In this document: positions 30,001 through 36,000 of the stretch, piece after piece | Layout: each line of letters begins with the position of its first letter | Numbering within the stretch: the stretch's first letter is position 1 | Source: Escherichia coli | Lineage (GTDB): Bacteria; Pseudomonadota; Gammaproteobacteria; Enterobacterales; Enterobacteriaceae | Length of the DNA: 64,000 bases | Direction: 5' to 3' (one strand) | Assembly: GCF_048403405.1 (NCBI RefSeq) | Contig: NZ_CP183129.1 | Position numbers: made by a program

Positions 30001-33000
30001 AGCGTGGAATTTCCATTATTGGTAATGGCGATAATTCGATTGCCGAAATTTTTCAGTGAAGGAACTAGCTTGAGGATTTCATCCGTTTCACCGCTGGCAG
30101 AAATAAGGATCAGAAGATCGTAAGGCGTAATCATGCCCAGATCGCCATGGAAAGCTTCTGCAGGATGAATAAAGAAACTAGGCGTACCCGTAGAGGCCAG
30201 CGTCGCTGATATTTTACGACCGACATGCCCTGATTTACCCATTCCCGAAAGAATAACGTGCCCTTTACAGTTCATTATCAAATTAAGGACACGCTGGTAC
30301 TGCCCGGAATCCAGTTGTTTAGACAAGTTTTGTAATGCTGCGCTTTGTTCTGCCAGAGTCTGGCGAACAGAGGTAATTAGATATGGATCGATAGTACTGC
30401 TCTGGTCATCAGGTAAATGTCTTTCAGACATATCAGCTCCTTTGCACGGAAATAATGCCACAGTCACAACAAACCTGAACCCACTATAATTTATTTATGC
30501 TAAATCAATGGGTTGTAACAAAATTTTTAATGAATATAAAACCATGGTCAGTCCATGCTTATATGCAGGACTTATCACCTTCTTATTAAGTCGCAATGTC
30601 TCATGGAGGTGCGAAGACGCTGCAATATTACAGGCGAGAAAGGGAACCAAATTTTGCCCACCTATTTAACACACTCCTACATTATGAACAAGGAATTTAG
30701 GATTTTTATCATTTATTAAAATGTTTCCTACTTGACTATTAATGCCAAAAACAATTTATCAATTGATTATTTCCTTGTAAAAAAAGAACGTATGACTATG
30801 TTATTAATAAATAAAACACGCAAATAATGGTGATGTTGTTTTGTGATTAATTATTTAAGTGATTCATAATAAACAGGTTGACAATTTCTATGTAAAGAAG
30901 AGGAAAATAATAAAATTTTAGCGGTGACTATTGAGTGATATGATAGTTGTGGTGTTGATTATTTCTGGTAATGAATGCGGAATTAAATCTGGCCGGATTG
31001 TATTTTTGCTATATCTATTTTTCAGGAGATTATTATTAAATAGAAAAATAACAATGGTGATTATCTCCGGTTGAGCTGGAGTCACGTATGCCAGCGAGTG
31101 CTTTCTTCCGGGCCTTCCTTCACTTCAGAGAAAGAGCCTATGGAAAAGAGGCAATCATCAGGCTCTTTTTGAGTCATATGCGCCGATAATCAACTGTCTT
31201 GAACGTAAAAATTATGGAGCAACATGATGCTACGATTCATTTCACTCTTCGTTCTTTCTGAGCATTGCGTTCAGGATGGTCAGCAATTTACGCATACAGT
31301 CAACCAGCGCCACTTTTTTGGTTTTTCCGGGTGCTGGCAGATGCATGTAAAACGCCTCTTTCACCGGATTAAACCAGGTTACCACAAGCGCTGCCATGTG
31401 CAGGGCTGCTCTTGCCTCCGTACGCGCACTGGCGTCGTTCGGCCAGCAGATATGTGTGGGATAACAGGGATGTTATGTGAACTGAACTGTGTTTTGCTAG
31501 CGGGGGATGTTTATTGATGATTCGGGAGTGTTTAAGACCTGATGGCGTTATGCACCCAAGTTTATTTTATATAAAGATCCAAAAGCAAAAACCCGCCTTG
31601 TGGGCGGGTTCTTAAGAATTAGTGGTGCCCGGAATCGGAATGAAACTGATTGTATAACAAATTGTTTTATATAGATTATTTTGTATTTGTTGTTTTTGAG
31701 GCCACCAATGAGGCCCCCATGTGCAATTCGAATTCTTTTGACGCTATAATCCCTCTTTTTTGTGCTTTGCTGTAATCATTTGGTCTGGTTCGATATGCTG
31801 AATTGTGGAATCGTACTTAACGCGTTTGTTAGCTGGTCAGAACACTTAGCGCTGTTTGTCTGAAACTGGAATAGGCTTCTTCCCAGTTAATCTGTGTATT
31901 ACCAAATACCATCGGTTTAACAAATCGTTGAAAGCGCAATTTGTGTACAGGATAATCCCGGAGTGCATCCAGCCCTTTCTTAAGTTCATCAACTGGTGAG
32001 CTACAAAATTGTGGGTACTGGTTACCATAGCGTGAATACATATCTGAACAAAATTTTTCAATACAGGAACATTCACACCTTTTTCCCTGACAATGCAGTA
32101 GTTGTCGTAAATGTGACGTACCAGAAACTCATCATCCTGTTGTTCGGGATTACGAAGATGTGCTGCTGTTCTTCGCATCATGGAGATGAGCTTTTCAGCC
32201 TGAGTGGATAAAATGGTGGCACAGGGGAATGCTGTTACAGGTGTACCTTTACCCGTTAACTCCGTGACAAGGGAATAAATATCTCTGCTTTCCGGATGTT
32301 CCAGCAGAGTGCTTTCCATCAACTCCAGCTTAATAAATGGACGAAGACAGGGGACTTGTGCAAATGTCTGGGGATAACGTACCGAGATTTCGTTATAACG
32401 ATACTCATCACGTGTTATACGGGCGTTTTCATTATCCAAGCTGAAAATGTCAGAATTATGAATAACATCCGTGATTATTTGCACGATTTCCTTGCGAATT
32501 TTTCTTCTCTTGTCTCTGCCATTTTGCATAAAGTTCTCTGTTGGCACGAGCTTTATATCAATATCTTCTGACATTCTGTTTAGCGAGATACCTGCTTTTG
32601 ATAATGCGGTACCTCCTGCAAACACGAGAGTATGTGTTTCTGGTTTTATTTCTTTTAATAATCTTAAAAGATCAACCACAAAATAATCTTTTTCGACGAT
32701 AGCGACAGATTCAATATCCAGTGCATCGGCAACGTCAGGAAATAATGATGTTAATTCAGGCATTGATTTTACTTTTCCCTACTATTAACACTCTTTTAAA
32801 TCGAGAAGGTGTTTTTATCCCCAGAGATACAGGAATTTGTGTGGACTGACCTTTATTGTAGCATTCCGTTGCTCCTGCCAGACGGTATCTGATATTCAGG
32901 CGCTCCAGGGCCTCTGTAATTACTGCAGCAGAGCCCCCAGGCGCTGCGGGCATGATTTTCCCAGTGATGATGTTACGACGGGCTTTGGTGTAAACACCAT

Positions 33001-36000
33001 AGCCCACTTTCATCAACTTACCTTCGTTTACCAGTGTACGAAGAGCTCTGCCAACCTGATCATAGCCAGCGATATCCCTGAAATCATCCCGGGTGAACAC
33101 ATAACGTTTTGAACGGTTCAGTCGGGACTGAATACGGTCTTTTGTAGTCATGTTTCCTCCGAAAAATTTTCACAATGATAGCAAAAATATGACATGTTTA
33201 ATAGCGGGGCAAGGCCACATTACCTGTCTGCTAATACATTTGGATAGTGCCTGGCAATTATGTCATTTAGCCTGTCAACCAGTTCTGGTTTCCTGAACGT
33301 GATGTGTGCGGAGCCCTTCTTAAAGTATCTGATGCTGAACATTTCGTCTTCATAGCGCTCTTTACCCTGAACGGACTGGATGTGACCATCCAGACGAATA
33401 GTGATGTTTTCCCGGTTGTCGGGAATCGGTTTGTCGCTGAACAGATGTAGCATTCTTTCCAGATCGGCGAGTCGGTCAGTCTGTTGTCCGGTGATAAGAT
33501 GAAATCTCCACCGGTCCCATCTCACCAGATTGTTGATAATGATTTTACTTCCAAATTTACAGGGAGAGTTGGTTTTATAATTCCAGCTCAGTCCCCTGAA
33601 GACGTTGATCACTCCCCGCTCAAACACCTCATCCTTGTTCTGGTGCAGTTGTTTAAATGTGCTCAGAATGTTCGCTTCGCTGATTTCCGGAAAATTATCG
33701 TACTCCAGTGACCGGTACCATGTATCACGGGCCTGCGCATCCATTAAGGAAAGCATCCTGGAACGTTGCATCAGGTCACGCCAGATTTCACGGTCAAGGT
33801 TGCGGGTGATGGCTTTCATTGCCGTTTCAGGTTTCTCCATGAGCCAGCAGCCGCAGCGAAAATCCTGTTTCATGGCCCAGTCCCGGGTGGTTTTACCTCC
33901 AATGCTTTCCGTCAGAACTGAGATTTCAGCCAGTTGCCGGATAAGTGTGTCGATTTGCAGCAGTGTACTTTTTCGTACAGCCAGAATGTGGTGGATACTG
34001 GTTGAGCAGATAACTTCCGTATGCCCGTTGACCACTTCCGGACGGGAGGCTGTGATATCAGACATAATCGATATTTATATGAACGCATCCCGTTTGCAAA
34101 GGCATCCATTGTTCTGACATCGACGGTAGGTTGCAGCTTTATATCCGGCTTTATTGCAGCCCGGAAGCTGCGAGCCCCTATGTAATTCGCCGACTCACGC
34201 CTCATTTCCTCTGCGGGCTTTAGGCCCAATCGATTATCCAGGTTTAGTGAGTCACGGTCTTACCTGTCTTTGTCATCACGCTGGCTGCCAGAGCAACCTT
34301 TCTGCATTCACCCTTTTGTAAAGAGTTTATGTTTATCGGTATCAGCGATTAATCAGGCCTGATACTGACATGATTTTTGTCGTATTTACGTCCGTGAGCG
34401 GCTATTGCCCACACCGTTCGCGCCAGCTTGTTTGCCATTGCGACGATTGCCACGCTGGCCGGACGACGCTTTTTCAGTTCGGTTATCCATGGACCAGGTT
34501 CTTTGGTCAGTAATGCTGCCGCCCTTGCACCATGAATAAACAGGGTTCGCAGATATTTATCACCACGTTTGCTTATTCCCAGCAGGCGGATTTTTCCTCC
34601 TGAGCCTGTCTGTCTGGGCACCAGACCGATAAACGCGGCGAATTCCCGTCCCGACTTAAAGGCGGAGGCGTCTCCCATCGTGGCAACGGCAGCGGTGGCG
34701 ATTAACGGCCCCACGCCTGGGATGTTCAGTAACCGCTGACAGGTTTCATTCTGTCTGGCTATCGCCTGCAACTGCTTCTCAATGTGGTCAAGATGTTCAT
34801 CAAGTTCAGTAATTCGCTGATATTGTTCATCCAGCATGTTTATCAGGTAGAGCGGTAGCCGCTCCTTCAGACGCTCCAGGGCTTCCGGCACCTCCTTCGC
34901 CAAAGCAGCACGCCCCTTGTGCGTCGTTTCACCAAATTCCAGCAAGAGACTGTGAAGCGCGTTTATCTGTGCTGTCCTGAACTTCACCAGTTGCTGGCGC
35001 ATTCGGTGTAACCCCAGCGTGGCCTGTTGCTCCTCGCTTTTAACGGCGACGGATTTTACCGGCTGCTGAACCGCCAGCCAGATGGCTCGGGCGTCCATCA
35101 CATCGTTTTTATTTCCCATCACGAATGCTTTGACGAACCGGCCTTTGAGTAATCTGACCTTATGTCCCAGTTTCTGAAGCTCACGCGCCCAGTGATGAGA
35201 ACCCCCACAGGCCTCCATGCCGATAAGGCAGGGTTCACGGTTGCTGAAATATTCAAGGAATTTCTCACGCTTAACCTGCTTATCGATAATCTCTACGGTA
35301 TGTTCATCAACGAAATGCACCTGCATAAGATGTTTTGCAATATCAACGCCGACAGGGATATATTTCATGGTGTGGATCCTCCAGTCTGTTGGGAGCGAAA
35401 CGCATCCCGTTGGGCACGATGATGCCGGAAATCTGCGGGGATCCACACTCATCTACTTAATCCCCGAGCGGCTCATTTCATAATGTTGGGATGCGTTCAT
35501 TACATTTCCTTTTTGCAGATAAATGAAAACGCCAGCCCTGTTCAGGCTGGCGTCAGTGGAATAAAGTCTGGTGAGTAAGACTCACCTGTTCTGTTGCAGA
35601 AGCTGCTGTTGGCGCAGGGTACGGATATCTTCCCTGGCCTGTTTAATGCAGGGCAGCAGTGCTGCTGAATCCGTTTTATCCTCATCGTTGTCGAAGATAA
35701 TCCCTGATTCGCAGTCAATATTGTCCTGCAGCCACGCAATCAGAATATCCAGCGCTGTTTCCGTGGTTAATGATTTCATGTTGTGAATTTCCGGGTTACC
35801 AGTCGAAAGTGGGTAAATCCGGCAGGCATTCAGCGCTGGCATCCAGATGAATGAGACTGACGCCATAACGTCGGGTAAGTGTGACAACCAGACGGCGGAA
35901 CGTTTTTGACAGCCCCAGGCGTTTAAGCCGCAGAACCGGGTATGACCACGCATCGGTACGTAACAGATATCCGCTACCTGTAAAATGAATCCATTCTGAT

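Follow-up and report, generated by a model that had tools for sequence, protein, structure and literature searches.

The stretch of Escherichia coli DNA analysed here, referred to as the window (64,000 nucleotides of contig NZ_CP183129.1, assembly GCF_048403405.1), carries three minus-strand open reading frames (ORFs), at 31846-32763 (305 aa), 32756-33151 (131 aa) and 33220-34065 (281 aa), the first two of which belong to the AbiEii toxin and AbiEi antitoxin families of abortive infection. With a probability of about 0.85, this region represents the distal end of a CP4-like genomic island associated with pheV/kps in sequence type 73 (ST73) E. coli, of the ATCC 25922 / CFT073 type, and contains two independent units, namely a DUF4942 gene and a decayed two-gene abiE cargo cassette, and no three-gene system. 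The abiE locus consists of an orphan antitoxin and a toxin pseudogene, from which neither abortive infection nor addiction is expected. The toxin gene is frameshifted both in the window strain and in about 90% of its E. coli carriers, and therefore a working abortive-infection system is not to be expected in the window.

E. coli ATCC 25922 and further genomes of the ST73 type match the window with 100% identity. The finding itself is an ordinary one, in that all three genes are annotated in RefSeq and the AbiE subfamily has already been modelled in PADLOC. The labels given by the Prokaryotic Genome Annotation Pipeline (PGAP) are "nucleotidyl transferase AbiEii/AbiGii toxin family protein", frameshifted, at 31829-32763, "DUF6088 family protein" and "DUF4942 domain-containing protein". 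The AbiE calls that defence-system predictors would make at this locus in ATCC 25922, CFT073 and ST131 overstate the defence repertoire, because about 90% of the E. coli carriers have a broken toxin, and DUF4942 should not be read as a partner of AbiE. The surveys below cover 5426 complete E. coli genomes, where a few clones (ST131 and ST73) weigh most heavily in the counts, which reflect sampling instead of independent events, and, across species, one genome per species, with 80 loci carrying this AbiEii clade.

The abiEii pseudogene

The initial annotation took the 131-aa and 305-aa ORFs to be an AbiEi/AbiEii-family pair overlapping by 8 nt. Both points were confirmed: the two ORFs share ATGCCTGA at 32756-32763, and PADLOC and Pfam profile searches assign them to the two families at a level well above chance. 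The 305-aa product matches the PADLOC AbiEii model PDLC02297 (E=2.5e-97) as well as Pfam PF08843 (E=6.4e-27). As for the reading of this ORF as the AbiEii toxin, the ORF and the family stand, but the gene is not intact, since its terminal ~60 residues are out of frame. Indeed, the alignment with PDLC02297 stops at residue 254 of 305.

The gene for this DUF1814 nucleotidyltransferase toxin is a pseudogene that extends over 31829..32763 on the minus strand, as indicated by the PGAP label "frameshifted", by the DNA alignment with the related locus L005 and by an AbiEii hidden Markov model (HMM) that matches in two frames. In the DNA alignment, a 13-nt deletion (ACAGGATATTGAA) lies between window positions 32033 and 32032, at codon 244. 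The ORF at 31846-32763 is consequently a frameshifted product, with about 60-70 C-terminal residues out of frame. The HMM of intact AbiEii homologues matches 31849-32778 in one frame and 31832-32128 in another (the latter with E=1e-32), and it is this second frame that encodes the conserved C-terminus. The intact relatives are 315-317 aa long and read ...NFVQICIQQDIERYGNQ... where the window reads ...NFVQICIHAMVTS...; across the deletion site they contain ...ICIQQDIERYGNQ....

Two trivial explanations of the frameshift were considered and rejected. A sequencing or assembly artefact is ruled out by the identical frameshift junction in 141 independent complete genomes, and a programmed frameshift by the deletion of the family-invariant D246 and I247 together with the existence of two other truncating alleles.

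The distribution of the alleles was obtained with junction-specific queries against the 5426 E. coli genomes. The intact junction was found in 64 genomes, the 13-nt deletion junction in 141, and a 14-nt deletion at the same site (the ST131 type, with a product of ~245 aa) in 457. That is, ~90% of the ~660 E. coli genomes with this abiEii carry one of the two deletions. In addition, abiEii in L005 (6184-7077) has an intact deletion site but contains a W298* nonsense codon, as well as G51S in motif I, and W298* is a third, independent lesion of the gene. Therefore, at least three different lesions have hit the same domain, while abiEi has stayed intact.

The abiEi antitoxin and its predicted operator

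The abiEi gene (32756..33151, minus strand) is intact and encodes a short AbiEi-type antitoxin/repressor of the DUF6088 family, as judged by PADLOC, Pfam and synteny. The 131-aa product matches the 131-position PADLOC AbiEi model PDLC02229 from end to end (E=4e-52), and Pfam finds DUF6088 (E=1e-8) and, over the N-terminal winged-helix domain at residues 10-54, AbiEi_4 (E=1.4e-4); no match to AbiEi was found in PHROGs. Against longer AbiEi profiles, only positions 1-123 of 202 and 3-121 of 214 are aligned. The short form is native to the clade, for the relatives have 131-136 aa in the 73 related loci with an assignable start, and in 79 of the 80 species-level loci AbiEii is directly preceded by a short AbiEi homologue.

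The predicted promoter/operator region of the cassette (33152..33219, minus strand) was recognised by the conservation of a tandem direct repeat, TG(T/C)CGTAT..TTTGC, with a spacing of 23-24 nt, about 70-100 nt upstream of the abiEi ATG. The repeat is kept in at least 60 of 73 related loci among L019-L098, from Enterobacterales to Vibrionaceae and Alteromonadales. The consensus operator is composed of two TGTCGTATGTTTGCT repeats, and the second one overlaps an extended -10-like TGcTATGAT. In the window, all on the minus strand, repeat 1 is a degenerate copy at 33219-33203, repeat 2 (TGTCATATTTTTGCT, two mismatches) is located at 33194-33180, the extended -10-like TGcTATCAT at 33183-33175 and the Shine-Dalgarno GGAGG of abiEi at 33160-33156. 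The degeneration of repeat 1 is shared by the E. coli lineage, and the L006 allele with its intact toxin is no exception. A generic sigma-70 scan of the gap between DUF4942 and abiEi gave no promoter match, and a generic repeat finder returned nothing useful there, because repeat 1 is degenerate in the window strain. We infer the promoter role of 33152-33219 from the extended -10-like sequence and the cross-species conservation. The tandem repeat is likely to be the AbiEi operator, by analogy with the autoregulation of AbiE, in which AbiEi represses the abiE operon (PMC3985639).

The homology between the abiE loci with and without DUF4942 begins exactly at the tandem repeat. With its own predicted promoter/operator, with AbiEi upstream of AbiEii in nearly every locus and with a homology boundary ~70 nt upstream of the ATG even where DUF4942 is missing, the abiE pair appears to be self-contained. 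In intact relatives, according to the published work on AbiE and MenT, the toxin would add nucleotides to tRNA and translation would stop, and AbiEi would both repress the operon and neutralise the toxin via auto-phosphorylation at the T65-equivalent (S65 here). In the window, the 13-nt deletion exchanges the conserved C-terminal helical domain for out-of-frame sequence, which leaves an orphan antitoxin beside a toxin pseudogene.

Alternative readings of the locus

Some observations weigh against a decayed cassette next to an independent gene, and they concern the toxin, the neighbourhood of abiE and the role of DUF4942. Then, could the frameshifted 305-aa AbiEii still be an active toxin, with an intact catalytic N-terminal domain, in a working AbiE abortive-infection or toxin-antitoxin (TA) system with a variant C-terminus? 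All its catalytic motifs, with a candidate for motif IV among them, are encoded upstream of the frameshift, before codon 244. By the published definition, motifs I/II read hG[G/S]x15DhD with a motif II arginine, motif III K..R and motif IV +DxxD (PMC3985639). The window product has A49-G50-G51, 15 residues and D67-I68-D69, together with R63, all invariant in 34 homologues. S65, within R63-M-S-E-D67 and invariant in the same alignment, is found at the position of T65, the phospho-acceptor of Streptococcus agalactiae AbiEii (bioRxiv 10.64898/2026.01.19.700257), the equivalence being one of identical motif numbering and not of structural alignment. K191-LISMM-R197-R198 fits motif III, and the nearest candidate for motif IV is R216-H-I-Y-D220, where H replaces the first D of +DxxD. 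The AbiEii profile, searched against PDB sequences, gave only spurious matches to designed proteins and no MenT. Besides the motifs and S65, the exact 305-aa ORF is known as CFT073 c3682 and occurs on at least 1000 contigs, and the antitoxin has been kept intact alongside the frameshifted toxin. Consequently, the 305-aa product with its preserved catalytic motifs may have some residual activity.

However, 15 residues invariant in the 34 homologues fall after the frameshift. In the AlphaFold2 (AF2) model of intact AbiEii, with a predicted local distance difference test (pLDDT) score of 84, the break is inside helix 232-250, and the C-terminal domain loses four further, confidently modelled helices. 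According to published work, this domain of the toxin forms part of the AbiEi-AbiEii interface (bioRxiv 10.64898/2026.01.19.700257), and none of the intact family members has a homologue of the out-of-frame tail. The 14-nt-deletion allele and W298* truncate the same domain, which speaks for loss of function and not for a selected variant, and the high prevalence of the frameshifted allele is clonal (ST73, ST131). An active toxin is thus improbable.

The points on DUF4942 lead to another alternative, that DUF4942, AbiEi and AbiEii form a three-component defence system, with DUF4942 as a sensor or accessory factor for AbiE; a third component is also what the initial annotation had proposed for the 281-aa gene. 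The three genes are co-directional, and no terminator was found between DUF4942 and abiEi by a pattern scan. DUF4942 and abiE are neighbours, ~70 nt apart, in E. coli, Salmonella, Klebsiella, Hafnia, Rouxiella, Photorhabdus and Enterobacter, and of seven diverged homologues (57-90% identical), five directly follow DUF4942, or what remains of it, at this constant spacing. In some Enterobacterales, a 3' fragment of DUF4942 persists directly upstream of abiE without the full gene (L012 4380-4538, L020 4311-4535, L022 4185-4535, and also L021, L029 and L040), and these fragments look like remnants of decayed islands. In Yersinia ruckeri, the DUF4942 gene is cut by an insertion sequence (IS). The adjacency within Enterobacterales is frequent and old, and therefore a functional tie such as read-through transcription may exist. 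In addition, the role suggested below for DUF4942 is read from its genomic context alone.

However, the co-occurrence of the two across genomes is low. DUF4942 is present in 3978 of the 5426 E. coli genomes (73%), with 7778 copies and up to 9 copies per genome, and abiE is found beside it in only ~650 genomes, that is, with at most 8% of the copies; at least 92% are without abiE. Among the 80 species-level loci, DUF4942 occurs within 5 kb of abiE in just 9, all of them from Enterobacterales. The other 71 include all those of Vibrio, Alteromonadales and Legionella and some of Dickeya, Pantoea and Serratia. In the same slot, parDE can be found instead of abiE, the DUF4942 homologues of 4860 plasmids sit in leading regions and not beside abiE, abiE has its own predicted promoter/operator, where the cross-locus homology starts, and PADLOC has no model for DUF4942. 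Since the few linked loci are confined to Enterobacterales and most DUF4942 copies are without abiE, the linkage is one-way and lineage-restricted. In Enterobacterales, this abiE clade often travels as a passenger at the end of the island family, and neither gene seems to need the other. A three-component system is accordingly very improbable, and we return to DUF4942 as an independent unit.

The DUF4942 gene

The DUF4942 gene (33220..34065, minus strand; 281 aa) closes the backbone of the CP4-like island as its last gene, as identified by Pfam, gene order and copy statistics. Its product had been described as free of recognisable motifs, which is not the case, since residues 87-275 correspond to positions 1-189 of the 190 in the model Pfam PF13708, DUF4942 (E=4.1e-67). 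None of the three proteins (305, 131 and 281 aa) has a match in NCBIfam. The AF2 model of the DUF4942 protein has a pLDDT of 89 and a predicted template modelling (pTM) score of 0.80. Foldseek found no match for it in the PDB (best E-value 0.6), a search of AFDB50 with the model returned family members only, and an HMM of the DUF4942 family gave nothing meaningful against PDB sequences. In certain proteins of phages and bacteria, the domain serves as the N-terminal accessory domain of a DNA methyltransferase; both in the phage family phrog_6263, whose N-terminal part is homologous to it, and in the 468-aa relative P0325, DUF4942 is followed by an MTS methyltransferase domain. The older annotation "restriction methylase" was rejected, as Pfam finds just DUF4942 in the 281-aa protein and the 468-aa relatives have the MTS domain in an additional C-terminal half.

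Homologues of DUF4942 with 32-38% identity are carried by 4860 of 72,556 plasmids, 4002 of which are conjugative. For example, on an IncI-gamma/K1 plasmid (L099 6962-7810), the homologue adjoins nikA/oriT in the leading region, together with psiB, psiA and ardA in the same orientation, and on an IncL/M plasmid (L100 6944-7804) it accompanies JAB, antirestriction and ssb genes. We infer that DUF4942 may help incoming mobile DNA to establish, for example by DNA recognition or in an accessory role of the anti-restriction type. A literature search on DUF4942 found mentions in gene tables only, with no function given, and another for ydiA with the leading region found nothing relevant.

It had also been suggested that the 281-aa gene may be an independent defence gene, in this case an anti-phage gene beside abiE in a small defence island. 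Its position at the island edge, adjoining TA/Abi cargo, would agree with this suggestion, as would the absence of an assigned function and of a solved relative for its fold. However, no defence model of PADLOC matches the protein, and the gene is a fixed part of the island backbone, always after DUF957, CbtA and the antirestriction gene, with up to 9 copies per genome. The plasmid homologues, in leading regions with ardA, psiB and ssb, fit establishment or anti-defence better than defence. A defence role therefore has little likelihood compared with the establishment role favoured here.

In the window strain, an IS110-family insertion sequence of 1434 bp (34071..35504, minus strand; transposase at 34349-35368), delimited by its junction sequences and PGAP, sits 5 nt upstream of the DUF4942 ATG. 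The Shine-Dalgarno of DUF4942, AAAGGAAA (35512-35505), is now 1.4 kb from the ATG, which is preceded by IS-end sequence without a Shine-Dalgarno, and the gene is also parted from the upstream DUF957-CbtA operon. Strains without the element read ...AAAGGAAAAACGATG... at this place, and the element is not at this site in L002-L005, nor in the ST131, O157:H7 and other loci compared. Judging from the sequence, DUF4942 would thus be compromised in the window strain, cut off from its ribosome-binding site.

Few uncharacterised genes of enterobacterial islands and of the leading regions in plasmids are as common as DUF4942, which has a confident model and no solved structural relative. The predicted tandem-repeat operator of the short-AbiEi clade, and the slot behind DUF4942 that holds abiE or parDE, are further points for a small follow-up.

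The island backbone, the cargo slot and the island end

The conserved module of the island has the order DUF932, antirestriction, RadC/JAB, DUF987, YeeU, CbtA, DUF5983, DUF957 and DUF4942, and DUF4942 is the last gene in every E. coli locus inspected. In the window, DUF957 (35582-35779) is directly upstream of the DUF4942 region, followed further upstream by DUF5983 (35796-36284), the CbtA-family toxin (36281-36658) and the YeeU-family antitoxin (36735-37115). A terminator-like hairpin is present at 35554-35528, between DUF957 and the original start of DUF4942.

The abiE cassette occupies a variable cargo slot at 31814..33241 (minus strand), delimited by the blastn break-points against L003, which has parDE, and L004, which has no cassette. 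In L003 (6115-6890), a parD/relE-parE type II TA pair is located in the same slot, between the 3' end of DUF4942 and the 200-bp island-end flank. The cargo segment is missing in O157:H7 and five other sampled strains, and one of these strains shares the kpsF / IS110-remnant neighbourhood of the window. The position downstream of DUF4942 looks like an exchangeable cargo site.

Downstream of abiEii, a pattern scan found a terminator-like hairpin with a 12-bp stem and a T run (31586..31614, minus strand). It is inside the conserved island-end flank at 31575-31845, which is common to L006 and L003, and the hairpin region is also found in Hafnia and Klebsiella loci. The island ends near 31575, just beyond the hairpin. 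The proposal that the genes lie at an island edge thus proved correct: in a related strain whose cassette is intact, the chromosomal backbone resumes with its type II secretion genes 355 nt past abiEii. A tRNA search of the window detected no tRNA gene, and therefore no tRNA was identified as an att site; Rfam gave no match in the cassette region. Between the island end and kpsF, at 31242-31424, there is a remnant of an IS110-family transposase gene, also present in ST131 and in the abiE-less L106.

A joint reading of these elements can be put forward tentatively, although we regard it as rather unlikely as a whole. DUF4942 would serve mobile elements as an establishment or anti-defence factor with a new fold, the position downstream of it would be a dedicated cargo slot exchanging TA cassettes (abiE, parDE), and the intact orphan AbiEi would counter incoming abiE elements as an anti-addiction repressor/antitoxin.

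Other features of the window

The part of the window from 12000 to 23000 is AT-rich (~30% GC) and belongs to the group 2 capsule (kps) cluster, of which it is the serotype-specific part, with a CDP-glycerol glycerophosphotransferase gene; a JUMPstart element is located at 13164-13202. Rfam matches at the gathering level are the C0719 small RNA (6285-6506), the Hfq-binding RNA STnc490 (9756-9879) and the IS102 RNA (52166-52371), the last of which is just upstream of the Ag43 gene (49022-52144). According to PGAP, further decay is seen at 8403-11519 and 40907-43425, where an IS4 transposase is frameshifted, gspK and gspL are pseudogenes and, inside the island, a hypothetical gene of 2.5 kb likewise has a frameshift.

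Comparison with known systems

The AbiE systems of S. agalactiae and Lactococcus (Dy et al., 2014, PMC3985639; Arrowsmith et al., 2026, bioRxiv 10.64898/2026.01.19.700257) are the closest point of comparison. As in these systems, the window has a bicistronic operon with the antitoxin gene first and overlapping genes, and a DUF1814 / pol-beta nucleotidyltransferase toxin with hG[G/S]x15DhD (G50-G51, D67 and D69) and R63; position 65 holds the phospho-acceptor, which is S in the window and T in S. agalactiae, and a K..R fits motif III. However, the 131-aa antitoxin (DUF6088) aligns only with the first ~120 positions of the ~200-aa profiles, so that the C-terminal neutralisation domain of the canonical two-domain protein of ~196 aa is absent or much reduced. 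The operator of the window clade consists of tandem direct repeats spaced by 23-24 nt, in contrast to the two inverted repeats of S. agalactiae, the candidate motif IV reads R-H-x-x-D instead of +DxxD, and the toxin gene of the window is frameshifted.

The MenAT systems of Mycobacterium tuberculosis (MenT1/3/4) have toxins of the same DUF1814 nucleotidyltransferase superfamily. The MenT toxins add nucleotides to tRNA acceptor stems and are controlled by auto-phosphorylation (PMC7450476, PMC10435456, PMC11375011). The two are too distant for detection by sequence, no MenT being found by the profile search of PDB sequences, and their antitoxin families differ.

The DUF4942 gene of the window resembles the other family members of CP4-like islands in its full-length domain and its place as the last gene after DUF957 (table in PMC6980539), and it differs from the other copies only by the IS110 insertion 5 nt upstream of the start codon. 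It shares a homologous domain with the DUF4942-methyltransferases (phrog_6263; P0325, 468 aa), but the C-terminal MTS domain of those proteins is wholly missing from it. Finally, the parDE cassette of L003, a type II TA system, is of an unrelated family, and yet it has the same flanks as the abiE cassette and is likewise a two-gene TA cargo.

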